NCBI GenBank assembly: GCA_003576945.1
Contig: QEVC01000001.1
Coordinates: forward strand, 26,129 to 90,128
From: Candidatus Microgenomates bacterium
GTDB taxonomy: Bacteria > Patescibacteriota > Microgenomatia > UBA1400 > UBA12108
Length of the DNA stretch: 64,000 bases
Direction: 5' to 3'
Below, one piece after another: positions 9,573 to 63,170 of the stretch (position 1 is its first letter; the number at the start of each line of letters is the position of its first letter). The position numbers were made by a program, and so were the translations under genes. The notes under the pieces are model-generated. The model was not told the origin of the DNA. It was given only the letters and a program-made list of their open reading frames with translations, and made no database searches.

Positions 9573-9658
9573 GAGTTGATTATACCATAATCGCGCAATT
9601 ATCGCGCAACTGACTTGGACTCATGGGTGCCTACAGGACCAGGTCCTGAAGATTTCAC

Positions 9659-9690
9659 TTGACAATTCTCTCTCTCTCTCTCTGTAAAAT
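9659..9690 (+). promoter_or_regulatory. Putative promoter with a (CT)8 dinucleotide tract inside the -35/-10 spacer
   Basis: TTGACA at 9659-9664, (CT)8 at 9668-9683, TAAAAT at 9685-9690. The spacer is 20 nt. Confidence 0.4.
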
Positions 9691-9700
9691 ATGTTATAGG

Positions 9701-31533: not shown

Positions 31534-31580
31534 GAATATAGTATAAAGTACCAAGTAAAAAGTACCTAGTGTATGGGATT

Positions 31581-32198: not shown

Positions 32199-35087
32199 TT
32201 AGATTTTTTTAAGACAACCAGCAACCCGACTACTAAGCCAGGTACAACCATCGGGTCCGCGGACAACCCCGTTACCACCACCATTAGCGTCGGCACAGCG
32301 GATAGTGGCGCCGCCATTGTCAATAAACACGCCGACGTGGCCATAACCACCAGTAGTCGTATCGACAAAGAAATCTCCTGGACTACAACTACCGATGCCG
32401 AGGACGGGCTTGTAGCCGGTGGGTGGGCTCGCAAGCAGAGTTTTGGCGTCGCCAAAACCAGAACCAGCACCACCATTGGCGACGTCGATCGCGCGGACAA
32501 AACCTACACATTGGAGGTAGGTGTAATTGGTGGCCGACTCTTTTAAGACAGCAATAGCGCTTTGAGCGAGAGTGCTGGCGAGGACGCACTGCCAACTATT
32601 GCCGTTTGCGTTGCTGGAGGTGAGAGGGTTAATGCCACACTTGCTTAGTATCTCAACGATACAGGCGGCAGTCTGGATGCGTGAGTTATTTTTGCCCCCA
32701 CCTTCGCCACTATCACAGAGGAGACTACCTATAAATTGACCTGCGCCGGAGTCGAGACTGAGGTTGACGTCGAGACGAGTAGTAACATCTAGATCAGAAA
32801 GGTTAGTAATATTTACAAAACTCATTACCCCAATAATTATGAGAGCGAGCATAAGCGACCCTAGAGTCAATGTAAAAACTCCACCGAGAAATATTCCCAG
32901 GCCCGTAAATATGCCAGCAAACAATCTCCCAATATTAAGGGTTGCAAGGAAGGCAGATATTGCGAGTCCCCAACCCACAACAGTTTCTCGAAACCTGCCA
33001 TCTTTAAAGAATTTTTTGAGAAAACTCCAACCCGCAGAGATTAAGTCCAGGGCAAGACTACCCACAAAGAGTACTGTGCCGATAATAGTACCAGATGAGG
33101 CGATGGCACCAATCAGCTTAGCCCCAGTTTTGGCTAAAGCCTTACCCCCAATTTTGATTAAAAAGCGGGTAGTGGCGCGGCCTGCTTGGATCCCTACGTA
33201 TTTACCAACATCTGATAGTCCGACCTTAGCAAGACTCCACTTAATGGCTTTACCCCACTGCCTACTGGCAAAAGCCGTAGTGGCTCCACCAACTGTGTGT
33301 CCGCCTAGCTCAAAATATTTGAGACCCCAGTTGATGACTGGTCTGGCAGGCTCTAGGACAACTTTCCACCCTTTATACTTGCCTGCTCCTTCTGCTAGCC
33401 ACCTAGTCGTGGTGACTTTTTTCCATTCGTCTAAGCGATCTTGGATCCAGGGGGCAATGCGAAAGAGGGGGATTTTGGTACCAGGAATTGTGACGTGTTC
33501 GGCGATTTCGTCCCATTTATCAAAAGCTCTGTGGAGAAGTTTTTTGCCTGTGATGGTTTCTTCAAAATCGATCCAGGAGTCAAGAATTTTGGTTTGAGCT
33601 TCATAAAGGCGAGATCTAGCATCAAGTACGCGGCGACCCCAGTGTGCACGGGAGATTTCGCGACGTTCAATGGGAGTTAGGCTAGTATAATAACTAAGGT
33701 CAGCATTAAGATGTCGGGCATTAATAATAAAATCAACATCGATGTTTTTGCCAGGCTTATTACTTTCTGCCTGGTAGGCATCGTAGAGGTTGTCAAATTT
33801 TGTATTATTTTTTGTGTTGTAGGCGAGGAGGAGCTGATCCTTTTTGGTACTAAGCCTCGCTTCGGTTTTGAGATATTGATGTTCATCGCGGAGAAAGAGA
33901 GTGGGATTAATACCTTTTTGAACTAGACTCCATTCGCGGCGCGTAAGACGATAGTTGTTAAGAGTTTCGACTTTTTGATTTTGGATGTACTCGAGTGAGA
34001 CGTCAAACCCTTGATTTTTGATACTGCTGCCTAGGTCGGTGAGAATAGAGGGTGAAATACTTAACTGCTGGCCAGTAAGAGTCATTAATTCATCAAAACT
34101 GCGTTTTTCGGTAGCACTACTAGTGGTAGTTTTGAGGAGAGTGGTAACAAGACGCGTTCGATCCGTTTCATTTAGGTTAGGGAGCGCGGAGGAGAGGCGA
34201 GACTTTAGCTCTGTTTCGTTTAAGAGCTGAGAGGAGAGCGAGCGAGCCGCCTCGAGGCGACGCGTTTCGTAGGTTTCGACAAACTCATTACCACCAAACT
34301 CTTTGACTATATTGTTAACAAGTTCTCTGGTTTGACGACTAGTCTTTTCTTCTTTGACGTAGGTGAGGAGGTCGGAACTTTCGGGGTAGGACTGTTTAAT
34401 GAGATCAGTTAGTTTGGAAGCTACAGCAAAATCTTTAACTTGATCACTCCCACCAGTACTCCCGGCGGCATGGAGGTCGCTTAAGTTGGCGGTTATGATG
34501 CGGGCAAACTGGGCGCGGAGGGCGGCTTCGCTAATACTGGTTCTACCTGGGGGGAGAATATCTCTAATTAATTTTTGGGGAACGACACCAGTATTTGCAT
34601 ATTTGAGGGCCTCAAAATACATTTTTGTATAGAGGTCGTACTGCTTGCCGGGGTCGTAGGAGGATGTTTTGACGATCGCCACGTCGAGTTTTTTGGCACG
34701 GAGAGCAGCGATGTTTTCGATACGCGCGGCAGTTAAGAGTTTGTTGGGATCTTGGACTTCTTTGGCAAAAATGAGAGAGGCACTACGAGCAAACTCTTCT
34801 TCACTCTTAATTCTACCCAGCTTTTCTTGATCCTCTTTGTTAATGCCCTTGACGTAGATTAAGTAGTCGAGGACGAGCTGTTTTGCTTCGGTAATGCTAA
34901 TGTATTCGGGTTCTTGCCCATTATCGACTGGGAGAGATACACCGCGGCTACCACCGACTATTTCTGCCTGGGAGGAGAGCTGCTCTAGGAGCCATTCTTG
35001 GATGAATTGGCGATTGGCGCCTTCTGACAACCCTCGGTTGTTTTTATAAAAAGTGGATTGTTGGTAGGTGATGAGTCGACGAGCCAT
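32199..35087 (-). CDS. Large membrane-spanning protein with a C-terminal CHAP-domain peptidoglycan hydrolase (VirB1/PrgK-like role)
   Basis: 962 aa: an about 650-aa N-domain without a signal peptide, 3-4 TM helices (about 660-760), and C-terminal YLQCVGFVRAI...GDFFVD...GYGHVGVFID, the Cys/His CHAP catalytic pattern. Confidence 0.6.
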   Translation of the reverse strand: MARRLITYQQSTFYKNNRGLSEGANRQFIQEWLLEQLSSQAEIVGGSRGVSLPVDNGQEPEYISITEAKQLVLDYLIYVKGINKEDQEKLGRIKSEEEFARSASLIFAKEVQDPNKLLTAARIENIAALRAKKLDVAIVKTSSYDPGKQYDLYTKMYFEALKYANTGVVPQKLIRDILPPGRTSISEAALRAQFARIITANLSDLHAAGSTGGSDQVKDFAVASKLTDLIKQSYPESSDLLTYVKEEKTSRQTRELVNNIVKEFGGNEFVETYETRRLEAARSLSSQLLNETELKSRLSSALPNLNETDRTRLVTTLLKTTTSSATEKRSFDELMTLTGQQLSISPSILTDLGSSIKNQGFDVSLEYIQNQKVETLNNYRLTRREWSLVQKGINPTLFLRDEHQYLKTEARLSTKKDQLLLAYNTKNNTKFDNLYDAYQAESNKPGKNIDVDFIINARHLNADLSYYTSLTPIERREISRAHWGRRVLDARSRLYEAQTKILDSWIDFEETITGKKLLHRAFDKWDEIAEHVTIPGTKIPLFRIAPWIQDRLDEWKKVTTTRWLAEGAGKYKGWKVVLEPARPVINWGLKYFELGGHTVGGATTAFASRQWGKAIKWSLAKVGLSDVGKYVGIQAGRATTRFLIKIGGKALAKTGAKLIGAIASSGTIIGTVLFVGSLALDLISAGWSFLKKFFKDGRFRETVVGWGLAISAFLATLNIGRLFAGIFTGLGIFLGGVFTLTLGSLMLALIIIGVMSFVNITNLSDLDVTTRLDVNLSLDSGAGQFIGSLLCDSGEGGGKNNSRIQTAACIVEILSKCGINPLTSSNANGNSWQCVLASTLAQSAIAVLKESATNYTYLQCVGFVRAIDVANGGAGSGFGDAKTLLASPPTGYKPVLGIGSCSPGDFFVDTTTGGYGHVGVFIDNGGATIRCADANGGGNGVVRGPDGCTWLSSRVAGCLKKI

Positions 35088-40141: not shown

Positions 40142-40687
40142 TTAGCGCAGTAGGCCAAGTTTATCTACCCATTCGTTGGCGGTGACGCGGACGTAATCAG
40201 CTTGACCGTAATCAAATAGGAGTTGTTTGGGTTCGATGCCGGACTCGCGGAGGAGCTGGAGAGCTTTGGTAAAGGTCTCTTGAAAAGCCTGGAGATTAGG
40301 ATTTTTCTCGGGATCGAGCTCGTCTTTGTTGAGATAGGAGAGGCCAGTAATGTCGAGGCGCGTGAGAGAGGGCTCGGTCGGGTGAAGAGTGATGTCGATA
40401 CTAGTATCGATACCCACGGAGGTTTTGAAATTGCGCATCCTGATCGGGAGGCGATCTGCGATAAGAGTGCGGTAACTGATGGCGTTATTTACTTTTTCCT
40501 CGGTGAGATTGGTAAAGTCGGAGAAGGGGTTATTGTTTGAGGATTGTTCTTGTGGGGTGCTAACTGGCGTGGGATTAGGGGTGCGTGAACTAAAGATTAA
40601 AACTAAAAAAAGAATAATGATCGAAATAGAAACGGCGGTTAGGAGAAATTTGTTGGTAAAGAGACGTTTGGTGAGTTGTTGTAGCAT
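40142..40687 (-). CDS. N-terminally anchored small protein, paralogue of 41914-42432
   Basis: Start moved to MLQQLTKRLF... so it matches the paralogue. The shared block is NLTEEKVNNAISYRTLIADRLPIRMRNFKTSVGIDTSIDI...LSYLNKDELDPEKNPN. Confidence 0.45.
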   Translation of the reverse strand: MLQQLTKRLFTNKFLLTAVSISIIILFLVLIFSSRTPNPTPVSTPQEQSSNNNPFSDFTNLTEEKVNNAISYRTLIADRLPIRMRNFKTSVGIDTSIDITLHPTEPSLTRLDITGLSYLNKDELDPEKNPNLQAFQETFTKALQLLRESGIEPKQLLFDYGQADYVRVTANEWVDKLGLLR

Positions 40688-40704
40688 AAGATTTAGTATA
40701 CAGA

Positions 40705-41841
40705 CTAACTGAGTAGTTGTGGGAGTGTCTGGAGGGCTTGTTTGATGGGTAATATCTGAATGTTTTCGATTTTTCTTTCCCGTTCTCCGCCATAAAAGAC
40801 AAAACACTTGGCAGATGGATATTCGGAGTAAAAAGTTTTGAGACCACGTATATCTTTTAGACTCACTTTATCCGAGTGTTTGACCTCGATGGCTATTAAA
40901 CCTGAGTTGCCATATAGAATAAAGTCTACTTCTACTCCATGAGTAGTACGCCAAAAGAATACGTTGTAATCAAGCTCCAAATTTGAGACGATTGCATTTA
41001 AGTTTTGCCAGACTAAACTTTCCCAGGCTATTCCTTCGATTTCATGGGGACTGTTAAGTGGGCCACTCGGCCTAAGAGTTTGGTAGATTCCAACATCGAA
41101 GAAGTAAAATTTGTTGTGAGAAACGAGTTTTCTTTTTGATTTGTGGGTAAAGACTGGGAGACGAGATGCAACGAGCAAATCTTCGAGAATACTAAGGTAG
41201 TTTTCGACAACCTTTCGCTCGATCATTGCTTCGCGAGCGATCTCTGAGGTGTTAATCAGCGAACCCTGAGAGTAGCTTATTGTTTCGAGAAATCTTGCAA
41301 AAGCACCAATGTTGCGAGTTAATCCTTCCTGCTTTACTTCCTGGGTGAGATAGGTGTTGACATAGCTCTCGAGATATTTCTTTGGATATTTGGTTGTTTG
41401 AGTGGTGGGTAACAGTCCATATTTTACTGCCTTTTTAAAGTCAAAATCTTTGCCTAGTTCGACTGCGCTTAAGGGTAGTAGATTATAGGTGAGCGCGCGA
41501 CCTGCAAGAAGATTAACACCACTTTTTCGTAATTTGCGTGCACTACTACCAGTTAAAACAAATTGATAGTGATGTGATTCGATTAGGCGATGTACTTCGT
41601 GCAGCAATTCGGGGATGCGTTGAATTTCGTCGAGAATAACTGGACTTTTGTTGTTGAAAGGAATTATCTCATCTAGTCTGCTAGGATTGGCTACTAATTC
41701 GTTGTAAACCCTAGCCTCTAGAAGATCCAAATATAGAGCATTGGGATATTTCTGACGCACTAAAGTAGTTTTTCCTGCCCCGCGAGGCCCAAGTAGGAAG
41801 ATGCTTTCATCGCGAGGTAAAACGATATTTCTGGAATACAT
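40705..41841 (-). CDS. AAA+ ATPase, DUF4143 family
   Basis: Walker A LLGPRGAGKTTLV, plus a C-terminal domain typical of DUF4143 proteins. Confidence 0.7.
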   Translation of the reverse strand: MYSRNIVLPRDESIFLLGPRGAGKTTLVRQKYPNALYLDLLEARVYNELVANPSRLDEIIPFNNKSPVILDEIQRIPELLHEVHRLIESHHYQFVLTGSSARKLRKSGVNLLAGRALTYNLLPLSAVELGKDFDFKKAVKYGLLPTTQTTKYPKKYLESYVNTYLTQEVKQEGLTRNIGAFARFLETISYSQGSLINTSEIAREAMIERKVVENYLSILEDLLVASRLPVFTHKSKRKLVSHNKFYFFDVGIYQTLRPSGPLNSPHEIEGIAWESLVWQNLNAIVSNLELDYNVFFWRTTHGVEVDFILYGNSGLIAIEVKHSDKVSLKDIRGLKTFYSEYPSAKCFVFYGGERERKIENIQILPIKQALQTLPQLLS

Positions 41842-41913
41842 AACTCCATTTTAACCAAATATTTGGAGTTGTCAACTCCAAATATTTGCTTGTTAGTACA
41901 AATAGAACTCGAG

Positions 41914-42432
41914 TTAGCGAAGAAGGTCTAGTTGTTCTACCCAGTAGGTGGCGGTGGTGTGTATATCTGTTCGGTCGCCATAACTAAAAATGAATTGGGT
42001 AGGATCGGCACCAGACTCACGAATGAGGGATAGCGCGCGGGCGTAGCTCTCGGCAAAGGCGATGATATTGGGGTTCTTTTTAGGGTCGAGTTCATCTTTG
42101 TGAAGGTAACTTAGACCGTAGATCTCGAGACGCATGAGGGAGGGATCGTCGTCACTGAGTGAGTAAATGTTAATAGTCGTGGTGATGCCAACGCTGGTTT
42201 TGAAGTCTTTGAGATAGATTGGGAAGCGATCCTGGACGAGCTTGCGGTAGTTTATGGCATTTTTTACTTTTTCCTCTGTGAGGTTAGTTAGTTCGGCGCG
42301 GAGCTGCGTGGTCGTGGGTTCGGGTGGGGGAGAAGAGAGAGGCGGGGTGGTCTTTCGTGGGGAGATGATAAGTATGAGTATTAGGATGAAAATTGAGATC
42401 GAGAAAGCGATGATAAAGAATTTTTTATTCAT
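41914..42432 (-). CDS. N-terminally anchored small protein, paralogue of 40142-40687
   Basis: RAELTNLTEEKVKNAINYRKLVQDRFPIYLKDFKTSVGITTTINI...LSYLHKDELDPKKNPN. Confidence 0.45.
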   Translation of the reverse strand: MNKKFFIIAFSISIFILILILIISPRKTTPPLSSPPPEPTTTQLRAELTNLTEEKVKNAINYRKLVQDRFPIYLKDFKTSVGITTTINIYSLSDDDPSLMRLEIYGLSYLHKDELDPKKNPNIIAFAESYARALSLIRESGADPTQFIFSYGDRTDIHTTATYWVEQLDLLR

Positions 42433-42433
42433 A

Positions 42434-45312
<2,879 letters not shown>

Positions 45313-45316
<4 letters not shown>

Positions 45317-45600
45317 GATTGGAAGCCAAAGTTGAATTGAGTAACTGGAGCGCCGGTTAGGTTTTCGATGAGGAGGAGAATGAGCCAGGAGATAATCGCG
45401 AGGGCGAGGCCGCCGACAGCGAGACCAATAGTTTGTTTACCACCTTGTAATCCCTTGGGATCACCACCGCTCGTTAGGATTTTGAAGCCACCGACTAAGA
45501 TCATAATAAAAGCAATCATGCCAATTAAAGGGATTATGGCTGATAAAACATTGCCAAAGTAGTCTGGTAGTTGATCGAGGCGTGCGGCGTCTGAGTCCAT
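45313..45600 (-). CDS. Small two-TM VirB2/TrbC-like (pilin-like) protein, array member 1
   Basis: 95 aa: hydrophobic helix, FKILTSGGDPKG loop, second helix LAVGGLALAIISWLILLLIENLTG. The 4-nt overlap (ATGA) with the upstream gene suggests translational coupling. Confidence 0.5.
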
Positions 45601-45614
45601 GTTTGTAATTATAG

Positions 45615-45646
45615 TACAAAAACCCCGCTTACGCGGGGTTTATTGC
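45615..45646 (-). terminator. Rho-independent terminator inside the pilin-like array
   Basis: CCCCGC-TTAC-GCGGGG hairpin. On the minus strand it is followed by TTTTTG. Confidence 0.5.
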
Positions 45647-45666
45647 ATTGTTTGTAACAAAAAGTC

Positions 45667-46020
45667 TTAGTAAGCAGTTGGAGGAGTGATGTTGTCGTTG
45701 AGGATCGAGATACCAAAGAAGTATTGGATGATCAACATGACGGCCCAGGCGGAGGCGACGACGGCGAGACCGACGAGTGCAGCGGTGATACGATCGCGCG
45801 CTTCTTGGGTTTTACCTTTATCTCCACCACTAGTGATCCATTGAATACCACCCCAGATGAGGTACATAAAGACGAGGAGCGCAGAGACGAGGAGAGCGCC
45901 TTGGACGGCACCTTTGATCAACGTTCCAATATTGGTGATTGCGACGTTATCTGGCTTGCCGATTGAGAGATCTGGAGCAGCTGGTGCAGCCATAACTTTT
46001 TCAACGATTGAGAATGACAT
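45667..46020 (-). CDS. Small two-TM pilin-like protein, array member 2
   Basis: ...YLIWGGIQWITSGGDKGKTQEARDRITAALVGLAVVASAWAVMLIIQYFFGI. Confidence 0.5.
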   Translation of the reverse strand: MSFSIVEKVMAAPAAPDLSIGKPDNVAITNIGTLIKGAVQGALLVSALLVFMYLIWGGIQWITSGGDKGKTQEARDRITAALVGLAVVASAWAVMLIIQYFFGISILNDNITPPTAY

Positions 46021-46040
46021 ATTTATCTCCTTATGTATTA

Positions 46041-46069
46041 GTACTTAGTACATAGTACATGGTACATGG
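46041..46069. repeat. GTACATAG-type 8-nt periodic repeat immediately upstream of array member 2
   Basis: gtacttagtacatagtacatggtacatgg. Related copies at 22235-22250, 46811-46833 and 53188-53216. Confidence 0.5.
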
Positions 46070-46109
46070 TTATAATTCTAGTATTTCTGATTATAGCAAT
46101 AATATTAAG

Positions 46110-46454
46110 TTATTTGGTAATCCCAATACCAAAGAAGTAATCGACGAGCAGATAGACTGCCCAAGCTGAGGCGACGATGGCGAGACCAACAATTGCCTGA
46201 GTGATTTTGTTCCTGGCCTCCTCGAGCTTGCCTTTGTCGCCACCGGCAGTGATCCAGTTGATCCCGCCGTAGACGAGATACATAAACGTGGCTAGACCTG
46301 CAACCAAGATCACTGCTGAGAAACTACGTGAGACAAAGGTTCCTAGATCTTCATTAATTGCTACCCTAGACTTAACCTGATCGTCGACGTTGATCGCAAA
46401 ACTACCACCTTGGGCGGATGCAGTTTTGATTAGTTTTAAAGTTGTAAAGTCCAT
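46110..46454 (-). CDS. Small two-TM pilin-like protein, array member 3
   Basis: ...YLVYGGINWITAGGDKGKLEEARNKITQAIVGLAIVASAWAVYLLVDYFFGI. Confidence 0.5.
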   Translation of the reverse strand: MDFTTLKLIKTASAQGGSFAINVDDQVKSRVAINEDLGTFVSRSFSAVILVAGLATFMYLVYGGINWITAGGDKGKLEEARNKITQAIVGLAIVASAWAVYLLVDYFFGIGITK

Positions 46455-46467
46455 AAAGTTTTTGAAG

Positions 46468-46863
46468 CTACCCTGCGGTAGGCCAGATAATATTTAATAA
46501 ATCAAGTCCGATGGCAGACTCGATAAACTTAACTACGACGTAGCTGGCTGCTAGGACAGCTAGACCAATTAATCCCTGGGTGATTTTGGCTCTACTCTCG
46601 TCAAGTTTACCCTTGTCGCCACCAGCAAGGATCCAGTTGAGTCCACCCCAAAGAAAGTAGAGAAGGAAGGCTAGTCCACCAACAATTATAATGGTTTGCC
46701 AGAGAGTGGCCATGGTAATTGCGAATTGTTGGGGCGCACTGTCGGGTGATTCTCCACCTGGAATTGCAGTGTTGGTGATCGCGGCGCGCGCGAGAGGGGC
46801 ACGAGAAGATAGTACATAGTACGTGGTACATAGCTGGAGGAAAATGATCTGTTTAAGTTTCAT
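46468..46863 (-). CDS. Small two-TM pilin-like protein, array member 4 (with signal peptide)
   Basis: MKLKQIIFLQLCTTYYVLSS... then YFLWGGLNWILAGGDKGKLDESRAKITQGLIGLAVLAASYVVV. Confidence 0.5.
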   Translation of the reverse strand: MKLKQIIFLQLCTTYYVLSSRAPLARAAITNTAIPGGESPDSAPQQFAITMATLWQTIIIVGGLAFLLYFLWGGLNWILAGGDKGKLDESRAKITQGLIGLAVLAASYVVVKFIESAIGLDLLNIIWPTAG

Positions 46864-46865
46864 AT

Positions 46866-47228
46866 TTAATTAAAGGTTAGTCCTTGAATAAGCACGCCGG
46901 GCTCGAGGATGTTAAGACCGAGGGCGGCACTCACGATCCAGGTGATGGAGTAGGAGAGAACGATAATAATTAAACCAATGGCGCCGCCAGTCATCATGCC
47001 TTTGGCCTTGTCAATTTTGCCTTTGTCACCACCGGCAGTAATCCAGTTAAGACCTCCCAAAAGAAAGTAGAGAACAAATGCGATTCCCGCAATAACAGTT
47101 AAAACTACAAGAGTGTTACTGATTAGTTTTTCGACAGCACTAGTACTACCATCGATGCCACCACCAGGTTGATAGCCGCCGGGAGTGGTGATGGTTTGAA
47201 AATCTAAGGCTTTGACTTTGGTAATCAT
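46866..47228 (-). CDS. Small two-TM pilin-like protein, array member 5
   Basis: ...YFLLGGLNWITAGGDKGKIDKAKGMMTGGAIGLIIIVLSY. Confidence 0.5.
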   Translation of the reverse strand: MITKVKALDFQTITTPGGYQPGGGIDGSTSAVEKLISNTLVVLTVIAGIAFVLYFLLGGLNWITAGGDKGKIDKAKGMMTGGAIGLIIIVLSYSITWIVSAALGLNILEPGVLIQGLTFN

Positions 47229-47234
47229 AGGTTA

Positions 47235-47570
47235 TTAAAGACTCCCGGGGCCAGTAATACTAGGTGTTAGGATGGCACCAGCGTTGTTGAATAATAGAAA
47301 AGAGACGACACCAGTGACTGCGGCAGCGCCCACCATAATAATTAGACCAAGGAGAGACATATTGATTGAGTACATGGCCGCTTGAATTTTTTTCTCGTCA
47401 CCACCCGCGGTAATGTAGGTAAAACCAGCGATCATGAGATTGAAGAAAGCATAAAGTCCGGCGGCGGCAAAGATGACGGTAATAACATTACTCACAAAAC
47501 TGGGAAGACCGGTGTCGACGTTGCCGTAGCCGGTGATGGGACTATCGATGCTACCAAAGACGCCTGCCAT
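47235..47570 (-). CDS. Small two-TM pilin-like protein, array member 6 (divergent)
   Basis: ...FNLMIAGFTYITAGGDEKKIQAAMYSINMSLLGLIIMVGAAAV. Confidence 0.45.
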   Translation of the reverse strand: MAGVFGSIDSPITGYGNVDTGLPSFVSNVITVIFAAAGLYAFFNLMIAGFTYITAGGDEKKIQAAMYSINMSLLGLIIMVGAAAVTGVVSFLLFNNAGAILTPSITGPGSL

Positions 47571-47574
47571 AATT

Positions 47575-47877
47575 TTATAAAATCTCTAGTCCGGTGACGA
47601 TTTGGATAATTTGAATTATCCAATACGACCCGAAGACAACTAATAAACCCATTATAGCAAAAGTAATAGTTTTTTTACCCTCCTCCATCTTGTGAGCATC
47701 GCTTGCACCGCTAATTACATTAAAGCCGCCAAGAATAAACATAAAAAAAAGTACTAGTCCGGCGGCAACATAAACATTAGGAAGAATGGCGTTAATTAAG
47801 TCGCTCGCACTGCTGTAGGTGGAATCAGCACCACTACCTTGGAAAATTAGCTTTTCACCCAGATTAAAGCCAGCCAT
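47575..47877 (-). CDS. Small two-TM pilin-like protein, array member 7 (divergent), first gene of the array
   Basis: ...FMFILGGFNVISGASDAHKMEEGKKTITFAIMGLLVVFGSYWIIQIIQ. Confidence 0.45.
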   Translation of the reverse strand: MAGFNLGEKLIFQGSGADSTYSSASDLINAILPNVYVAAGLVLFFMFILGGFNVISGASDAHKMEEGKKTITFAIMGLLVVFGSYWIIQIIQIVTGLEIL

Positions 47878-47914
47878 GAAGTTAGTATAGCGTATACAGT
47901 ATAATGAATAAAGT

Positions 47915-48454
47915 ATGGATCATCTGGTAGAACAGGTATTATCAGGGCAAAAGGGAGCGGCGACGCGGTTTTACCATAAATATAGTCCGATGTTGCGGAG
48001 GTTTTTAAATGCCAAATTGCCGAGCCCGGCAGATGCCGAGGAATTGCTTCAAGACACATTTTTGTCTGTTTTTGATTCTCTGCCTCTTTATCGAGGAGAG
48101 TGTAGTGTTATTTCTTGGATTTATTCGATCGCGAGACATGAAGTGGCGGATTTTTATCGCAAGCGGTATGTACGAGAACTAGTGGAAAAAACCAACCCCT
48201 TGTTTGAAGAGCTCTTGGAGACAGTTGAAACCCCAGAAAAAGTTTGGGATAAGACTAAGGTGCGAGCAAGATTTTTTGGGGCGTACAAAAGCCTTAATCA
48301 ATCATACCAAGATGTGTTGTCGTACCGGTACGAATTATCACTGTCTGTTAAGGAGATTGCAGTGAAAATGAGACTTACTTTTAAAGCGACAGAATCACTG
48401 CTTTATCGGGCGCGAGTCGCATTTAGCCTCGCTTATAACAATTATGCAGAGTGA
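47915..48454 (+). CDS. ECF-type sigma-70 family RNA polymerase sigma factor
   Basis: Region 2 is ELLQDTFLSVFDSLPLYRGECSVISWIYSIARHEVADFYRKRY. Region 4 is YQDVLSYRYELSLSVKEIAVKMRLTFKATESLLYRARVAF. A TATAAT sits 12 nt upstream of the start. Confidence 0.7.
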   Translation: MDHLVEQVLSGQKGAATRFYHKYSPMLRRFLNAKLPSPADAEELLQDTFLSVFDSLPLYRGECSVISWIYSIARHEVADFYRKRYVRELVEKTNPLFEELLETVETPEKVWDKTKVRARFFGAYKSLNQSYQDVLSYRYELSLSVKEIAVKMRLTFKATESLLYRARVAFSLAYNNYAE

Positions 48455-48675: not shown

Positions 48676-48987
48676 ATGAAGAAGTCGGTTTTAGTTCTTT
48701 GGATGAGTTATGTCTGGGGGACGACGCTCGCAGGTTTGGCAATTCATCCATATCAGTCGATCAGGAGAATTGTATTAACCAAGCGAATATTATTACCAGT
48801 TACCTTGTCACCAGTACTGGGGTTAGTTGTTTTATTTGTGGTTGGGAGAGTGGGGAGCTACGTGTTTACACTTGGAGCGTGGGGAAGAGAGATGATGGCT
48901 TTGGTTTTGGGGAGCACGCTCATTGGGTTGTTGATGTGGCAAGGGTTACTACTCCTATTGGTGTGGCGTTTTTGGCGTGTGCGTTAG
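48676..48987 (+). CDS. Small polytopic membrane protein
   Basis: Start moved to MKKSVLVLW. Three hydrophobic helices. Confidence 0.3.
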   Translation: MKKSVLVLWMSYVWGTTLAGLAIHPYQSIRRIVLTKRILLPVTLSPVLGLVVLFVVGRVGSYVFTLGAWGREMMALVLGSTLIGLLMWQGLLLLLVWRFWRVR

Positions 48988-49346
48988 AGGTGATCGACGA
49001 TGGCGGTTTCGCCAAAGTATCCCAATTTCAGTAGTAGCTTGTCTCGTGTGAGAAAATATTGACATTTTCCCTGGGTTGCGGAGTGAAGTTGAATGTTGTC
49101 TTCTAGATCATTGGTTGGACCAACAAGAGCACGTTGGAGGATGATATTAGACAAATTTACGACACCTATGTTTTTTAGAAGTATGTCGATTTCCATGGAA
49201 GGGACGTTGGTTTTTGTTGCGTAACATAAGATGTGGCAAGAGAGAGGGGAGATGTATAGCTTGTGGTCTGTAAGTTCTGTTATTTTGCCCGTATCGCGCC
49301 TAAATAGGTCGATCAGGATGTTGGTGTCAAGATATATGCTTGCCAT
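48984..49346 (-). CDS. PIN-domain toxin (VapC-like)
   Basis: MASIYLDTNILIDLF...LTRDKLLL match conserved PIN acidic-residue positions. Confidence 0.65.
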   Translation of the reverse strand: MASIYLDTNILIDLFRRDTGKITELTDHKLYISPLSCHILCYATKTNVPSMEIDILLKNIGVVNLSNIILQRALVGPTNDLEDNIQLHSATQGKCQYFLTRDKLLLKLGYFGETAIVDHL

Positions 49347-49593
49347 ATTTTTTTTGGATATAGTCGTCGTAGTTCTTCTTTCTTTGTGCGTCAGAAATTT
49401 TGTTAGTTTTGAGATTTTTGGTGAGTTCTAGATATTTTTTACCATCAAAAGGCCGAGCAGGCTTATCTTCTGGAGGAGAGATAACGCCAAGGACTTGGGA
49501 GCGATGAATCAACTGGACAGAGTGGCCTGCCATGAGTGCATCAACCAGGACGGTAGTATTAGTTCTAAGCTGGGTAGTGGTTATGAAGTTCAT
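49327..49593 (-). CDS. Phd/YefM-type antitoxin
   Basis: MNFITTTQLRTNTTVLVDALMAGHSVQLIHRSQVLGVISP fits the Phd/YefM N-terminal pattern. Overlaps the PIN gene by 20 nt. Confidence 0.5.
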   Translation of the reverse strand: MNFITTTQLRTNTTVLVDALMAGHSVQLIHRSQVLGVISPPEDKPARPFDGKKYLELTKNLKTNKISDAQRKKNYDDYIQKKYGKHIS

Positions 49594-49672
49594 ATACACT
49601 TAAATATACATTTAAATGTATATTTGTCAAGTTGGGCGAATGGTTTTGGTGTAAGTAGGCGACTAATAGGGT

Positions 49673-52856: not shown

Positions 52857-53249
52857 TTACCCAACAATGTCAATTTTGAAGACAACCTGGAGGATCTGGG
52901 CGATCCAGAAGGCGAGAAAGATTACGGCAAAACCAATGAGGGCGCTAGTAATAGTTTTTTTACCTTTTTCCTGGGCTTCTTTATCAGCCGCACCAGCGAG
53001 CATAGTAAAGCCGCCAGAGACGAGCATGCCAAAGAGAATAATCCCAGCGAGGGTTAGGAGCGTGGGGAGAATAGAGCTAATAATACTCCCTAGATTTCTG
53101 GTGTCGACAGATCCACCCCCAAGACCAAGGGCATTTTCGTAGGCACCGTAGTCAGCAAAGTCGGCTGCTCGTGCTTGAGGAACGAGAGTACATAGTACAT
53201 AGTACATAGTACATAGTTGAAAAGAGATATTTTTTAATTTTTTATTCAT
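52857..53249 (-). CDS. Small two-TM pilin-like protein (eighth paralogue, with signal peptide)
   Basis: MNKKLKNISFQLCTMYYVLCTLVPQARA... then MLVSGGFTMLAGAADKEAQEKGKKTITSALIGFAVIFLAFWIAQILQ. Confidence 0.5.
   Translation of the reverse strand: MNKKLKNISFQLCTMYYVLCTLVPQARAADFADYGAYENALGLGGGSVDTRNLGSIISSILPTLLTLAGIILFGMLVSGGFTMLAGAADKEAQEKGKKTITSALIGFAVIFLAFWIAQILQVVFKIDIVG
53188..53216. repeat. (GTACATAG)x3.5 tandem repeat encoding the signal-peptide core LCTMYYVLC
   Basis: Seen directly. Confidence 0.55.
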
Positions 53250-53251
53250 GA

Positions 53252-53668
53252 TCAGTTAAATCCTGGTAATTGAATGATATCACCCGCCACAATCCGAAGC
53301 AGGGTGACTGAGAAGATGATAAAGAGAAGTCCGGTAATCGCGCTAGTAAAGAGTTCTTTGCCTTTTTTTACCTGTTCGGCGTTATCGCCACCTGTCATAA
53401 TCTGGATGGTGGCAATGAGCATAATAACGAGCGAGATGGCGCCGGCGGTACCGGCGAGGAACTTGAGGAGCGAGACAGTAAAACCTTTAGTTTCAACGCT
53501 TAAACACCCAAGCGCAGTATCAACTGCGGTGTCGCCACAATCACCGTTTGGATTGATGGCGTGAGCGGGTGAGGAAAGAGCGGAAAAGGAGATTAAGACC
53601 GAAGCTAAGATGGTCGCGAGATATGTTAGGATAGAGACATGGTTTCTCTCTGGAAAAAGCTTTTTCAT
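53252..53668 (-). CDS. Secreted two-TM protein ending in IIQLPGFN (LPGF module; VirB2/TrbC-like candidate)
   Basis: Signal peptide, two Cys, then LLKFLAGTAGAISLVIMLIATIQIMTGGDNAEQVKKGKELFTSAITGLLFIIFSVTLLRIVAGDIIQLPGFN. This is homologous to the C-terminus of the 960-aa protein. Confidence 0.5.
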   Translation of the reverse strand: MKKLFPERNHVSILTYLATILASVLISFSALSSPAHAINPNGDCGDTAVDTALGCLSVETKGFTVSLLKFLAGTAGAISLVIMLIATIQIMTGGDNAEQVKKGKELFTSAITGLLFIIFSVTLLRIVAGDIIQLPGFN

Positions 53669-55348
53669 AGAATAGTGTTTTTGCTGTTTCTTATCCTGAT
53701 AATTGTATCACACCAGATCGTGAGGAACGTAAGCGCAGAGAGTCTGGAAGAAATTGAGAAACAAATTGCGGATTTGACTAACCAGTTACAACTATCACAA
53801 GCAGCAACAACACCGCTTGAAGCAGAGGTTTCTAAGCTGCAAAAGCAGATAACAAACATACAAAGCCAAATTAAGCAGTATGAAGGTGAAATCCAAGAAC
53901 TAGGCAAGAATATCGAGAATAGAGAAGACAAAATAAAAACACAGTATTTAATATTGGGGGCTAAGGTGCGAGATTATTATAAGAAAACGAGATTCTACTC
54001 ACCACTATTAACCTTGCTGTCTTCACAAAGTGCGGGGGAATTAACCAGAGAGCTCACATATAAGGAGGCGACAGCAGACGAAGACAAAGAGATGATTGTT
54101 GCGATTACCAGAGAAATAATTCAGTTGGAGGCGGACAAAAAGAAACTAGAGTCAGATAAGGTAAGGCTCGCCGCCCTGCAGCAGAAGATTGACGCTCAGA
54201 AGGCATTTTTTGAGAAAGAGATCGCTGGAGCGAAGAAGTGGCAACAAGAGTTGTCGGGAAAGATCGCGACATTGACGGCGAAACAGCAAGCGATTTTGTC
54301 GGAGAAATCAGGAACATTTCAAACTACGGTAGGAGATGTGCCGCTCGCAGATGATCCAGCATCGAGACCAGACTATAATCCTGGTTTCTCGCCAGCGTTC
54401 GCGGCCTTCTCATTTGGGGCACCCCATTTTAAGGGGATGAGTCAGTATGGAGCATATGGTCGAGCTAAGCAGGGGCAAAACTACGAAACGATTTTGAAAG
54501 CATATTATGGCAACGGCATAGAGATTAAGGATCATAACCCCGATGCACAAATTGTGGTGGAAGGATATGGAAGCTTTAGTCTCGAAGAGTACGCCAAGCG
54601 AATTTATGAGATGCCGGGCTCGTGGGGCGACGAAGGAGGAATGGAAGCACTAAAGGCACAAGCAATTGCGGCCCGTAGCTACGCGCTCGCACGTGGAGGG
54701 ACAATCTGTGCGACTGAATCATGTCAGGTGTTTAAACCTAGTCCAAAAGGCGGTAGGTGGGAAGAGGCGGTTAATGCAACGAGAGGCAAAGTGGTATATG
54801 CGAATGGCAGCCCACTTTCGACTTGGTATGCGTCGACATCTGGGGGATACCAAGAGAGTTATAGTAGTAATGGGTATAGTACCCCAGGTTTTTGGGATAC
54901 TAGTAATGGTCAAGCTGGCTGGACCGCACAGGCATACGAAAAGATTGCAGGGTCACCATGGTTTTATAAAGCATGGTACAAGACGAGATCGGGTGACTCT
55001 TGTGGACGGAGCAATCCCTGGCTTACTAGTGAAGAGATGGCGGACATCCTGAACGCGTGGGTGGTGTTGTATCAAGGTGGTGGAGAGGCGGGGAGAGTAA
55101 CCCCAGAGTCGAGTTGTTGGGGAGGGAGCCCGTATAGCAAGAGTGATTTGGCGAGCATTGGCGGATACACTAGCGTGAATGATATCCGGGTGACGTATAG
55201 TGGGAATGGGGCGACCGCGAACGTGATTGCGACGACTAACCGGGGGAGTGTGACGATTGCTGGGAGCGAATTTTATAAGGCATTTAATCTGCGTGCGCCA
55301 GCACGGATCTCACTAAAGTCAGGGCTATTTAATATTGAGCGCAAGTAA
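53639..55348 (+). CDS. SpoIID/LytB-domain protein with N-terminal TM and coiled coil
   Basis: MSQYGAYGRAKQGQNYETILKAYYGNG...ALKAQAIAARSYAL is the SpoIID/LytB signature. Residues 30-230 are a long heptad-rich coiled coil. Confidence 0.65.
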   Translation: MVSLWKKLFHRIVFLLFLILIIVSHQIVRNVSAESLEEIEKQIADLTNQLQLSQAATTPLEAEVSKLQKQITNIQSQIKQYEGEIQELGKNIENREDKIKTQYLILGAKVRDYYKKTRFYSPLLTLLSSQSAGELTRELTYKEATADEDKEMIVAITREIIQLEADKKKLESDKVRLAALQQKIDAQKAFFEKEIAGAKKWQQELSGKIATLTAKQQAILSEKSGTFQTTVGDVPLADDPASRPDYNPGFSPAFAAFSFGAPHFKGMSQYGAYGRAKQGQNYETILKAYYGNGIEIKDHNPDAQIVVEGYGSFSLEEYAKRIYEMPGSWGDEGGMEALKAQAIAARSYALARGGTICATESCQVFKPSPKGGRWEEAVNATRGKVVYANGSPLSTWYASTSGGYQESYSSNGYSTPGFWDTSNGQAGWTAQAYEKIAGSPWFYKAWYKTRSGDSCGRSNPWLTSEEMADILNAWVVLYQGGGEAGRVTPESSCWGGSPYSKSDLASIGGYTSVNDIRVTYSGNGATANVIATTNRGSVTIAGSEFYKAFNLRAPARISLKSGLFNIERK

Positions 55349-55366
55349 TTGTGATACCATATACTT

Positions 55367-56035
55367 ATGCCAGATGTGTATGTTGCACAAAAGCCTGAAG
55401 AAAAAAAGAGCATGGAAAAACAAACAGAGCGAAAGTCGGTGACACAGTTGAAAACAATGGTGGAGAAGATGGGAGGGGACACTCTGTTCACTTCGTTTGC
55501 GTCATTCCCCAAACATATATGTTTTCAGACACAAGAAGACGAAGAAGTAATTGTGCTATTTATGCGTCAGCACTTTTTGGTGAATATTCCATGGATAGTA
55601 TTGTCGATATTTATGTTAACGCTTCCTTCGGTATTTGCCTTCTTCCCCCCATATGCTGCACTAAGCACGAGTTTTCAGTTTGTGGTCTCGTTAGGCTGGT
55701 ATTTATTTGTTTCTGGTTATACACTTGCGAAGTTGATGGGATGGTTTTTTAACATTTATATAGTGACAGATGAGCGAATAGTGGATGTCGACTTTAAAAA
55801 CATTTTCTTTAGAAAGATTTCGACAGCCAAGATAGAGGAGATCCAGGATATTAATGTGCAAGCCTCTGGTTCCTTTGAGACCTTTTTTGGGTATGGGAGT
55901 GTGTTTATTCAAACCGCAGCAGAGGTTCCAGAATTTGAATTTGTTGCTATTCCACATCCAGATCGTGTGGGAAAAATCCTCAACCAACTAATTGATCATG
56001 AGGAACAAGAGAAGATTGAGGGGAGGGTCAAATAA
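55367..56035 (+). CDS. Membrane protein with a bacterial PH (bPH_2/YdbT-like) domain
   Basis: Two TM helices, then YIVTDERIVDVDFKNIFFRKISTAKIEEIQDINVQ, a bPH pattern. Confidence 0.45.
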   Translation: MPDVYVAQKPEEKKSMEKQTERKSVTQLKTMVEKMGGDTLFTSFASFPKHICFQTQEDEEVIVLFMRQHFLVNIPWIVLSIFMLTLPSVFAFFPPYAALSTSFQFVVSLGWYLFVSGYTLAKLMGWFFNIYIVTDERIVDVDFKNIFFRKISTAKIEEIQDINVQASGSFETFFGYGSVFIQTAAEVPEFEFVAIPHPDRVGKILNQLIDHEEQEKIEGRVK

Positions 56036-56036
56036 A

Positions 56037-56267
56037 ATGGAAACACTCGCATTTTTGGATGGTTTGAGTTTAATGTTATTTGTGAAGTTTTTGCTTGTCA
56101 CACTCCTAGCGATTTATGCGATTTTTGCGCTACTAATGATGAAGCAAATTAATGCGATGACAAGAGCGGTTACAATGCAAGATGACTATATTATTCGTGG
56201 TTTGGGAGCGCTGCATTTTGGGTTTGCAGTCATGGTGTGGATACTATCTTTGCTCCCAGCCGCATAG
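56037..56267 (+). CDS. Small two-TM membrane protein
   Basis: METLAFLDGLSLMLFVKFLLVTLLAIYAIF... Start chosen at the internal ATG. Confidence 0.3.
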   Translation: METLAFLDGLSLMLFVKFLLVTLLAIYAIFALLMMKQINAMTRAVTMQDDYIIRGLGALHFGFAVMVWILSLLPAA

Positions 56268-56284
56268 ACAAGAGTGTTATAAAA

Positions 56285-58069
56285 ATGATAACCACAAATG
56301 CCCATAGTTTGGTTGGAAGCTCGACGAAAAACTCTTGGTCTCAAGCGCAGAGTCTAACAAATAATCATCAAACAGTTTCATTAGTTATTAACTTGAAGAT
56401 TTTGGGAGAGGAGGGGGTAATCGACTTGGCATCGATTGGTGGAGCTATTTTTGAAAAATTTCACGAGCAGGGCAAGATGTATCGGACACCAGTGGAGTGG
56501 CAAGAATTTCTCGAGAGTGAACTGGGTGATGTGACCCACGAGGTAGAAGTTTCGGTTGTAGTTGTTTGTATTTATGACGAGACTGTATGGCTTTGGGGGA
56601 AGGGCAAAACTGGGGCAAGACTATATCGTGAGGGTCGCTTTATCACACTAGTAGAGGGAGATAAATGGGAAGAGGGATTAGCGGGCACAATTACACATAA
56701 TGACATTCTAATTATAGGGACAGAGAAGGGGATAGAGACCAGTACAGAACCTCATTTAATGGAAACGATTAAGAGTGGGGTCTTAAACTATATCGAAACA
56801 TTGGCACCCTTGATTCACTTACGCCCAGAACAAGCAGAAATGGCAATGGTAATGCTCGAATGCATTGCTGATAGTGATAGTGACGGCCGCGAATTGTTGC
56901 ATGAGGCTAAGAATCCAAATATATTAACCAAGAAAAAATTCCCAGAGATTGTGGTTAGAAGAATGAGAGAAGAACCAAGAAAGTTTAACCTTCTACTTGG
57001 TTCGATGTTGGGAGTGATACTGATAATCCTAATCATCACCGGTGCATATGTGAGGATTGAGAAAAAGGCAAAAAGTGAGTATGAAACAGCTGTGAGTCGC
57101 TCAGAAAATATGATTAGAGAAGCTGAGGATGTGGCGGAGAGCAACCCAGAGCGTTCCAAGATACTAATCTCACAGAGCATAGAAGTCCTAGAACTATACC
57201 TTGCCACCAGACCTAAGTCTAATTATGAAGCAGCAGCGAAGAGTGGTCTCGAAAGGATTAGGAATAAGGAGCAGGAAATTTTGAAAGTAAGAGGAACAAC
57301 ACTTTCGCCAACAATCGAACTTTCACTCTTATCAGAGAATTTAAAAAGTGATCAAATCGTGGATGATGGCAGTGGGTCTATGTACTTTTGGGACGACAGT
57401 AGCCGAAGTATTGTGGGTGTTTCGGTAAAAGATCTTTCGAAAGTGACTTTTAATGTAGAGAACGAAAGGTTTGTGAGACCATTTAGCACAAGAGATGGGG
57501 TATATACTGGCTTTTCGGCGGGAGGGATTTGGAGTGGGAGTAAGAGTGAACAAAAAGTTGTAGTTCCTACGGATTCTGAGTGGGGGGAGATATCGCAAGT
57601 TGCGACTTTTGGGAACAACATTTATTTATTAGACAGAGGGTTGGGTGAGATCTGGAAATATGCCGCGACTGATACGGGCTACGCTGAGAGAAAGAGGTGG
57701 TTTGGCAAGGGGATAGTGCTTGATCTATCGAGGGTGGTCGACTGGGTGGTAGATGGCGATATCTGGCTACTGACTAGTAGTGGAAAACTGGAAAAGTATT
57801 CGAGGGGAGTTCCAGCCAACTTTGTCCTTACCGGGTTTCCGAGTGAGAGCGAGACGGGTGGGTTGGTTGACCCAATCGCACTGAGCATAGTGGATGACAA
57901 GATTTATGTCCTCGAAAGGGGAGCTAAGCGAGTAGTGACGTTTGGACTGGATGGCAAGTATGTGGAGCAGTATGTGTCAGAAGATTTTGGGAGAGCGAGC
58001 GACTTGATGGTGTACGAGGGTAAGGGCTACGCACTAGTGGACAATGTGATAAAGGAGTGGGAGCTGTAG
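56285..58069 (+). CDS. Hypothetical protein with a central TM (cytoplasmic N-domain, extracytoplasmic beta-rich C-domain)
   Basis: About 595 aa with a TM at LLLGSMLGVILIILIITGAYV. No motif recognised. Confidence 0.35.
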   Translation: MITTNAHSLVGSSTKNSWSQAQSLTNNHQTVSLVINLKILGEEGVIDLASIGGAIFEKFHEQGKMYRTPVEWQEFLESELGDVTHEVEVSVVVVCIYDETVWLWGKGKTGARLYREGRFITLVEGDKWEEGLAGTITHNDILIIGTEKGIETSTEPHLMETIKSGVLNYIETLAPLIHLRPEQAEMAMVMLECIADSDSDGRELLHEAKNPNILTKKKFPEIVVRRMREEPRKFNLLLGSMLGVILIILIITGAYVRIEKKAKSEYETAVSRSENMIREAEDVAESNPERSKILISQSIEVLELYLATRPKSNYEAAAKSGLERIRNKEQEILKVRGTTLSPTIELSLLSENLKSDQIVDDGSGSMYFWDDSSRSIVGVSVKDLSKVTFNVENERFVRPFSTRDGVYTGFSAGGIWSGSKSEQKVVVPTDSEWGEISQVATFGNNIYLLDRGLGEIWKYAATDTGYAERKRWFGKGIVLDLSRVVDWVVDGDIWLLTSSGKLEKYSRGVPANFVLTGFPSESETGGLVDPIALSIVDDKIYVLERGAKRVVTFGLDGKYVEQYVSEDFGRASDLMVYEGKGYALVDNVIKEWEL

Positions 58070-62628: not shown

Positions 62629-63170
62629 CCGACCGTTAGGTCGAGTGAGGGAGTTACCCCTGTTTCGGCGGGAGTCGTACCAAAGCTAGTAGAATAGGGA
62701 GGTATGGAATTTACCCACCTATCCCATTGCCTCTACCACTGCGAATACCACATAGTTATCACCACCAAGTTTCGGAAGAAAATCTTTAACGAGGGAATTT
62801 TTGCCTACTTTGATATTAAGTTGGCGGAAATAACCGAGCACTATCCTTTGATCAGGTTCCGAAAAGTGAACCATGATCGTGATCACATCCACCTTCTAGT
62901 CTCCATTCCGCCAACAATGAACGTGGGGAGAGCAGTAGGGATCATTAAACAGAATACCGCTCGGAATCTCAAACAAAAATTCCCGTTTCTCAAAGACGTG
63001 TACTGGGGGACTGAAGCAGTGTGGTCGGAAGGCTACTTTGCTAGTACCGTGGGAGCTAACGAGTCAATCATCAAACGCTATATAGAAAATCAGGGTAAGC
63101 AAGAAACAGGGCAAGCTACGCTTGAACTAAATTAACCCCGCGACCGTAAGGTAGTCGGTGATTTAGCGTC
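62629..63170 (+). mobile_element. IS200/IS605-family insertion sequence (tnpA only) with subterminal hairpins
   Basis: Left hairpin CGACC-GTTA-GGTCG at 62633-62646, right imperfect hairpin CGAC-cgtaaggta-GTCG at about 63143-63159, flanking the tnpA ORF. Confidence 0.6.
62704..63135 (+). CDS. tnpA: IS200/IS605 Y1 (HuH) transposase TnpA
   Basis: YHCEYHIVITTKFRK...HDRDHIHLLVSIPP (HuH motif) ...YWGTEAVWSEGYFASTVG (catalytic Tyr region). Confidence 0.85.
   Translation: MEFTHLSHCLYHCEYHIVITTKFRKKIFNEGIFAYFDIKLAEITEHYPLIRFRKVNHDRDHIHLLVSIPPTMNVGRAVGIIKQNTARNLKQKFPFLKDVYWGTEAVWSEGYFASTVGANESIIKRYIENQGKQETGQATLELN

Follow-up and report, generated by a model that had tools for sequence, protein, structure and literature searches.

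A SpoIID/LytB-type wall enzyme gene linked head to head with a pair of VirB2-like genes in Microgenomatia

In Patescibacteria, type IV secretion system (T4SS) genes lie next to dnaA, with pilin arrays typical of Microgenomatia, and most Patescibacteria that have VirB2 have no detectable VirB1, for which other glycosidases may substitute (PMC12102498). A T4SS-like apparatus of the candidate phyla radiation (CPR) is needed for epibiotic growth in one genetically tested species, and pilin subunits of a related CPR T4SS, those of the Southlakia epibionticum array, are essential (PMC10633639). Here, we describe a trio of genes in a 64,000-nucleotide (nt) stretch of a Candidatus Microgenomates bacterium (GCA_003576945.1, contig QEVC01000001.1, positions 26,129 to 90,128 of the forward strand), the whole of which is called the window below. 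In this trio the gene of a predicted secreted, coiled-coil SpoIID/LytB-type protein (SpoIID) stands head to head with two VirB2-like genes, pil130 and LPGF138. The window comes from a CPR bacterium of the class Microgenomatia, and the closest homologues of its SpoIID protein are labelled Woesebacteria or Microgenomates. We know of no cultured member of Microgenomatia.

SpoIID is mentioned neither in a survey of T4SS (PMC12102498) nor in the Southlakia genetics paper (PMC10633639). A literature search returned no paper joining SpoIID with Patescibacteria or CPR and none reporting the linkage of pilin-like genes to SpoIID; the five papers naming both SpoIID and type IV secretion are on other subjects, judging by title and abstract, one of them briefly mentioning SpoIID-like domains in polyvalent proteins. 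New here is a secretion-system-linked wall hydrolase with a different fold, in an unusual and very stable gene arrangement. Microgenomatia thus gain two candidates for the missing VirB1 role: the pair-locked SpoIID transglycosylase, and a lysozyme-like domain, missed by searches with hidden Markov models (HMMs), in a 960-residue protein (p960) of the T4SS locus.

The gene trio and its linkage in relatives

The three open reading frames (ORFs) of the original prediction, two on the minus strand and one divergent from them, were all recovered. The minus-strand genes are 2 nt apart and therefore probably co-transcribed as one operon. The features of the trio, with proteins measured in amino acids (aa), are as follows.

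52857-53249, minus strand: pil130, a VirB2-like (T4SS_pilin, PF18895) hairpin protein of 130 aa, second gene of the pair (orthogroup adj2)
53187-53217, minus strand: tandem heptamer (TATGTAC)x4.4 within the extension at the pil130 N-terminus (Tandem Repeats Finder, 100% matches)
53252-53668, minus strand: LPGF138, 138 aa, first gene of the pair (orthogroup adj1) and direct neighbour of SpoIID; PF18895 in homologues
53639-53668, both strands: start overlap of LPGF138 and SpoIID, 30 nt, with ATG codons at 53668 (138-aa gene) and 53639 (569-aa gene)
53639-55348, plus strand: coiled-coil SpoIID/LytB-type protein, 569 aa, predicted secreted (TIGR02669, PF08486)
53639-53737, plus strand: predicted SpoIID signal peptide (residues 1-33)
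53744-54310, plus strand: predicted SpoIID coiled-coil hairpin, ~190 aa (residues 36-224)
54311-55345, plus strand: SpoIID catalytic region (residues 225-569)
54608-54610, plus strand: candidate catalytic Glu324 of SpoIID (profile alignment to 4RWR)

Conserved linkage of the trio in relatives, on which the original prediction had staked its claim, was found in nearly every locus. The sample comprised the best 80 of 311 SpoIID relatives, at 54-85% identity and on one-genome-per-species contigs, with record titles naming Woesebacteria, Curtissbacteria, Gottesmanbacteria, Collierbacteria, Chisholmbacteria, 'Pacebacteria' and Microgenomates. Their ORFs were annotated with the window proteins and a pilin HMM, and a locus counted as usable if its SpoIID gene was intact and preceded by 900 nt or more (n=67). 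A divergent pilin-like gene lies within 600 nt of SpoIID in 59 of the 67 usable loci, and in 59/59 of these the gene next to SpoIID is LPGF-type, with a second pilin-like gene behind it. In six further loci one inserted gene displaces the pair or an ORF-calling artefact masks it, giving near-adjacency in 65/67; the pair is absent from L012 and L025 only, the latter a short contig with a toxin-antitoxin insertion. The reverse test started from 50 metagenome loci found by the LPGF module, six of which are of the p960 type. Here, LPGF138-type loci with room upstream are head to head with SpoIID in ~36/36 cases, and the eight without it reach a contig end.

The neighbourhood is fairly syntenic overall, and the pilin-SpoIID junction is its most stable part. 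A pilin-like gene is kept within 1.3 kb upstream of SpoIID in 61/64 loci, while the other adjacencies are kept in 67-75%: downstream, a bPH_2 gene (51/68), a gene for a 610-aa protein (39/53) and SmpB (36/50); upstream, UppS within 3 kb (37/55, in the same orientation in 21/55). The junction survives at least four upstream configurations, including UppS in either orientation, and the pair is more faithful to SpoIID than to the main pilin array.

Within the window, 5 kb separate the pair from the array and 23 kb separate it from VirB4, and the pair had been called a second mini-locus. That description is misleading, since many relatives have the pair running on into the array or into a block containing a candidate VirB6. 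In some, the array leads straight into the pair, making an uninterrupted series of as many as 11 pilin-like genes; in seven species a block of a polytopic gene like the 502-aa one of this window, p960 and two pilin-like genes abuts the pair, and the usual downstream genes are missing. The pair is better described as the SpoIID-proximal end of the pilin cluster; isoprenoid and UppS genes fill the 5-kb gap in this lineage. As judged from gene order, the trio is an ancient, tightly linked module of the class Microgenomatia.

An independent public gene call for locus L131 (GCA_020724785.1, contig DYGH01000001.1) gives the same gene order, with Pfam labels. At 9419-10039 of this locus, the public call is a 136-aa plus-strand ORF without a family, lying over a 206-aa minus-strand LPGF-type protein. 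Shadow-ORF annotation errors may help explain why the linkage went unnoticed.

Proteins and start region of the trio

The pil130 protein matches Pfam PF18895 T4SS_pilin (E 3.2e-10, 40.4 bits; cutoff 26.6) and can be aligned with the seven array paralogues at 45313-47877, in keeping with the proposal that this protein with a GG...DK loop is a paralogue of the array. Its hydrophobic segments are residues 53-88 and 98-130 by hydropathy. The orthologous core spans ~52857-53165; orthologues have ~100 aa and the N-terminus MADFADY.

LPGF138 consists of a signal peptide, a Cys-x10-Cys loop, a VirB2-like hairpin with hydrophobic segments at 63-95 and 105-135 (hydropathy), and a C-terminal LPGF. Alone it scores 21.3 bits against PF18895, under the Pfam cutoff; its homologues match at E<0.01 in 35/35 cases (best 6e-7), three of them also matching PF04956 TrbC, and profile-profile comparison with the array pilins (hhalign) gives 89.6% probability at E 1.9e-6. 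The final ~100 residues of p960 are paralogous to it and likewise end in LPGF. The hairpin helices of pil130 and LPGF138 are joined by short basic loops, with the motifs AADKEAQEKGKK and GGDNAEQVKKGK. The label 'pilin-like' in the original prediction thus holds in the sense of a VirB2/TrbC-type T4SS pilin (PF18895), and not in that of a type IV pilus pilin.

The LPGF138 module is nearly invariant in homologues, including the exposed Cys loop (TALGC) and the LPGF tail, and the C-terminal (L/I)PG(F/L) motif occurs in adj1 only. Best cross-genome matches fall within the protein's own group for 65/67 adj1 proteins, 58/63 adj2 proteins and 160/174 array pilins; by this measure the pair members are orthologue lineages of their own, not recent copies of array pilins. 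A greater conservation of the pair than of the array pilins was considered and rejected, as array orthologues are equally conserved.

Codons 1-27 of pil130 are a lineage-specific extension, absent from orthologues, that runs through the (TATGTAC)x4.4 repeat. Related copies lie at 46809-46833, 46039-46070 and 22226-22251, and the places occupied by (TATGTAC)n are the pil130 extension, the 5' codons of the fourth array pilin, the region upstream of the second array pilin and a Wzy-like gene; another heptamer, (TAGAAAG)x4.7 at 45259-45291, lies within the signal-peptide codons of p960. A 7-nt unit shifts the reading frame, which makes these heptamers, at envelope-gene 5' ends, phase-variation candidates. 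No copy-number variant that would mark such a switch was seen among the fetched loci, and the repeats are restricted to this lineage: the pil130 repeat recurs in L113 only, with identical sequence.

For the 569-aa protein, the proposal of a SpoIID/LytB domain following a coiled coil agrees with matches to TIGR02669 SpoIID_LytB (100.3 bits; cutoff 83.3) and PF08486 (E 6.5e-13, 49.6 bits; cutoff 23) and with two long predicted helices, 36-116 and 147-224, in a low-confidence AlphaFold2 model (16-sequence alignment; mean predicted local distance difference test score, pLDDT, 59.6). A Foldseek search of this model against the Protein Data Bank (PDB) gave nothing significant, and no fold-level claim is drawn from it. 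Against solved structures, the family profile finds 4RWR, SpoIID of B. anthracis, at E 2.6e-12, and Glu324 (YEMP), invariant in 16 homologues, aligns to the Glu of the SEM motif in 4RWR, which we take to be the catalytic residue. SpoIID has 5739 homologues at E<1e-10, and those of 66-89% identity show almost no change in the catalytic region. At E<=1e-30, 119 representatives (50% identity) are mostly 560-630 aa long with the catalytic part starting from ~225-280, so the coiled-coil layout is the rule in the family. Positions in the hairpin tip (residues 117-149) are invariant, which suggests a binding site for a partner protein.

The order of segments is swapped relative to the solved structures. 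Residues 257-298, with the GxxHxxGMSQYGA...YY block, correspond to 4RWR 282-322, and residues 312-410, the catalytic block, to 4RWR 68-187; the former precedes the latter here and follows it in 4RWR and 5I1T. This circularly permuted order (residues 257-410, window 54407-54868) also occurs in the distant relatives P0409 and P0440, so it is not unique to this protein and may mark a subtype of the family, possibly LytB-type, and not an outsider.

The description of the protein as anchored by a transmembrane (TM) segment is doubtful. Between its single N-terminal hydrophobic stretch and the coiled coil, homologues keep a small-x-small site (VSA|E, VHA|E or VKA|E); a cleaved signal peptide accounts for this better than a membrane anchor does.

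The overlap of the 138-aa and 569-aa genes at their starts, also part of the original prediction, is 30 nt long and holds a 14-nt perfect palindrome, GAAAAAGCTTTTTC (53653-53666), with KKLF encoded on both strands. An overlap of the same 30 nt length recurs in L002-L009, L042 and ~19 metagenome loci, and the overlap DNA is conserved. Both starts are real, since the N-termini read from the two overlapping ATG codons (MKKxFPxRxH and MxSxWKKLFH) are kept in homologues; no alternative start codon was found within the LPGF138 signal-peptide codons on reading the sequence.

A consensus scan of the overlap region found no sigma-70-type site, and no motif common to the upstream regions of the array and the pair was found. 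A -10-like hexamer followed by 6 nt and the ATG was noted at the SpoIID gene (TGTTAGGAT AGAGAC ATG; 53620-53638) and again at the first pilin gene of the array (TATACT AACTTC ATG; 47878-47895), a spacing that would fit leaderless mRNAs at both. On the minus strand, within the SpoIID signal-peptide codons (~53706-53714), stands a conserved TGATACAAT, a possible promoter of the pilin pair. The -10-like and promoter-like sites are all under coding constraint from the opposite strand as well.

Downstream, SpoIID is probably in one operon with three co-directional genes.

55367-56035, plus strand: bPH_2 membrane protein (Pfam)
55992-56267, plus strand: DUF5657 (Pfam)
56237-58069, plus strand: single-TM protein of 610 aa, kept downstream in relatives

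The secretion locus and its other wall enzymes

The window contains the replication origin region (rnpA, yidC, dnaA and dnaN) directly followed by a T4SS locus of the Gram-positive type, and so agrees with the placement and pilin arrays described for Patescibacteria and Microgenomatia. The main features of the T4SS locus are these.

27606-29540, minus strand: VirB4 (Pfam TraG P-loop, AAA_10, CagE_TrbE_VirB)
30502-31554, minus strand: PrgI/VirB3-like gene (Pfam PrgI)
32199-35087, minus strand: CHAP-domain protein, 962 aa (Pfam CHAP, 25.9 bits, E 1.4e-5)
42434-45316, minus strand: p960, 960 aa, a signal peptide and large ectodomain followed by an LPGF-type VirB2-like module at the C-terminus
42827-43459, minus strand: predicted lysozyme/lytic-transglycosylase-like domain of p960 (residues ~620-830)
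~42437-42724, minus strand: LPGF-type module of p960, paralogue of LPGF138
45313-47877, minus strand: main array of seven VirB2-like paralogues (alignment), orthologues of each kept in relatives

A 502-aa polytopic membrane protein in the T4SS locus is a candidate VirB6-like protein; it has no Pfam or NCBIfam match even at E<=5, leaving the VirB6 assignment without HMM support. Full-length p960 and its fragments likewise gave no Pfam or NCBIfam match at that threshold and no hit in a PDB sequence search. Residues ~620-830 of p960 have a confident predicted fold (pLDDT 88.9) and an invariant Glu in HFVEG, with Foldseek E-values that are not significant. On the predicted structure, p960 joins a VirB1-like domain to a VirB2-like module of the LPGF type. 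The lysozyme-like domain was not found in the longer N-terminal ectodomains that LPGF-type neighbours of SpoIID have in relatives, to which the C-terminal module alone matches. LPGF modules thus accompany glycan-cleaving domains, fused to one in p960 and encoded next door to one in the case of SpoIID.

Ten VirB2-like modules are present in the window, counting that of p960. The public gene calls for L131 label all seven array genes PF18895. Paralogues within the array are only ~20-40% identical to one another, and orthologues of each are 50-97% identical in other species (comparison with L003, L006 and L042). Antigenic variation of such arrays is an idea raised in the literature; that each paralogue is a conserved orthologue lineage of its own favours a fixed multi-subunit assembly instead.

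A gene for an extracytoplasmic function (ECF)-like sigma-70 factor (47915-48454, plus strand) is divergent to the first array gene with 37 nt between them, an arrangement also seen in L131, and is a possible dedicated regulator of the array. Inside the T4SS locus, at 40142-42468, an AAA_14/DUF4143 ATPase gene (40705-41841) is flanked by two paralogous small genes (184 aa and 221 aa). Relatives have one copy of this small gene directly followed by that of the 502-aa membrane protein, so the segment looks like an insertion with duplication. Between the array and the isoprenoid genes are a PIN-domain toxin gene and its small upstream partner (48984-49599, minus strand), and an IS200-like Y1 transposase gene (62704-63135, plus strand) lies near the end of the window.

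Readings of the locus and known systems

The conserved linkage gives good support to the idea that the pilin pair and the SpoIID enzyme are functionally coupled. The original prediction went further and suggested for the trio a dedicated wall-penetration function for the apparatus, a role that we put forward conditionally. The exported enzyme would cleave glycan strands of peptidoglycan locally, so that a VirB2-like assembly of the CPR T4SS-like apparatus could pass through or assemble across the wall, and SpoIID would thereby supply a VirB1-like activity from a different fold. Its substrate would be strands from which the CHAP protein had removed the peptides, in the way that sporulation SpoIID follows SpoIIP. 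The LPGF-type hairpin would serve wall-cutting domains as a membrane docking partner, in cis in p960 and in trans for SpoIID, with contact made through the conserved tip of the SpoIID coiled coil. We hold this reading tentatively, at a little short of an even chance. A broader version, in which LPGF-type VirB2-fold hairpins are general adaptors that carry or activate peptidoglycan cutters in CPR bacteria, either fused (p960) or non-covalently through a coiled-coil tip (SpoIID), we consider improbable; if true, a 'pilin' fold would be a control subunit of wall hydrolases, a new control principle replacing VirB1 recruitment or FtsEX-type control.

Several observations weigh against local wall opening by SpoIID for the secretion apparatus. 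The T4SS locus already has a CHAP protein and the lysozyme-like domain of p960, so that SpoIID is not the sole candidate wall-opener and the need for a third enzyme is not obvious. Among 150 representatives (50% identity clusters), none has its SpoIID domain fused to a pilin module, and the loci compared are nearest relatives from one class, in which shared ancestry inflates the linkage counts. The SpoIID gene heads an operon near the housekeeping genes UppS and SmpB and isoprenoid genes, and the protein has a layout, a coiled-coil hairpin (in the low-confidence model) with a C-terminal hydrolase, like that of division hydrolases. Its sequence is very highly conserved and its family large, and one source names its homologues 'CwlO-like'. 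The position, layout, conservation and family size of SpoIID could be accounted for by a housekeeping hydrolase of growth or division, in the style of PcsB, CwlO, EnvC or RipA and perhaps controlled by FtsEX, which is reported in some Patescibacteria (PMC11809585), or a septal one as in Chlamydia, with the pilin adjacency as inherited synteny. SpoIID does have weak similarities to PcsB (NCBIfam, E 1.9e-4), EnvC (E 0.01) and the PcsB coiled-coil domain, and PcsB (Foldseek, E 0.056), RipA and EnvC are among the top fold matches, none significant; but the coiled-coil similarities are under every curated cutoff, far so for the NCBIfam models, and no FtsE or FtsX match was found among the scanned ORFs of the 64-kb window. 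The pilin adjacency is, moreover, better kept than any housekeeping adjacency and survives the loss of both flanks, and in seven species SpoIID and the pair abut p960 and the candidate VirB6-like block. We regard the housekeeping explanation as unlikely, though as the main rival one to be taken seriously.

The constancy of the pair beside SpoIID, while its distance to the array and VirB4 varies, would also suit a dedicated membrane receptor or regulator of the enzyme that is independent of secretion, as FtsX is for PcsB and EnvC or SpoIIM for SpoIIP and SpoIID. The separation of the pair orthogroups from the array pilins agrees with this, as do the near-invariance of the TALGC loop and LPGF tail of LPGF138 and of the coiled-coil tip 117-149, and the 30-nt overlap with its common palindrome suggests joint control. 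Conservation does not single out the pair, however, given the equally conserved array orthologues; p960, within the T4SS locus, has an LPGF module at its end too, and the pair is continuous with the array in several lineages. We regard a secretion-independent receptor as quite improbable. An artefact, with the small ORFs as opposite-strand shadows and the overlap due to wrong start codons, can for practical purposes be excluded and has hardly any probability left. A plus-strand shadow ORF (53274-53564) does overlap the 138-aa gene, and one public annotation calls such an ORF in place of an LPGF-type gene. The minus-strand product, however, has the PF18895 match in all 35 homologues, is a paralogue of the p960 C-terminus, carries a signal peptide and two hydrophobic helices, and shows protein-level conservation across more than 100 loci; its signal-peptide codons offer no alternative start, and the SpoIID N-terminus is conserved from the overlapping ATG.

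Among described systems, local wall opening by SpoIID would be closest to the VirB1-type hydrolases (VirB1, PrgK, TraG of pIP501, CwlT and TcpG), in which the gene of a wall-cleaving enzyme also stands beside those of secretion-system subunits and local wall opening for assembly of the apparatus is likewise presumed. Gram-positive T4SS hydrolases combine glycan-cleaving and CHAP domains, and a CHAP protein is encoded in the T4SS locus here. The enzyme described here departs from these in its fold, which is SpoIID/LytB and not lysozyme-like (SLT or muramidase). It is exported as a separate protein, carries a ~190-aa coiled coil, has its gene paired to VirB2-like genes and not to VirB4, and coexists with the second, lysozyme-like domain already in p960.

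With sporulation SpoIID (4RWR, 5I1T), the enzyme has in common the catalytic family and the Glu motif, and would on that basis be expected to be a lytic transglycosylase acting on peptide-free strands. The SpoIID-SpoIIM-SpoIIP set, of an enzyme, an amidase/peptidase (SpoIIP) and a scaffold (SpoIIM), has its proposed counterparts here in the CHAP protein and the LPGF hairpin. The organism here is non-sporulating, unlike those of sporulation SpoIID, and the protein differs in the placement of the GMSQYGA segment before the catalytic block, in its long N-terminal coiled coil and in its neighbours. The FtsEX-controlled PcsB, CwlO, EnvC and RipA would resemble it in layout: after a signal peptide comes a long, antiparallel coiled-coil hairpin (predicted here by the low-confidence model) whose tip is conserved, and a wall-active domain occupies the C-terminus. 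They differ in that the catalytic domain is of the SpoIID type here and not CHAP, NlpC/P60 or LytM, the matches to them are not significant, no FtsEX is nearby and a VirB2-like pair is the conserved neighbour. Finally, the VirB2-like arrays of Patescibacteria (PMC12102498), including that of Southlakia epibionticum (PMC10633639), are of the PF18895 family to which the pair belongs, and the seven-gene array here is near VirB4 and dnaA, in agreement with the description for Microgenomatia; in contrast to those arrays, the two pair members are orthogroups of their own that stay with SpoIID, and one of them has an LPGF tail, a Cys loop and a signal peptide.

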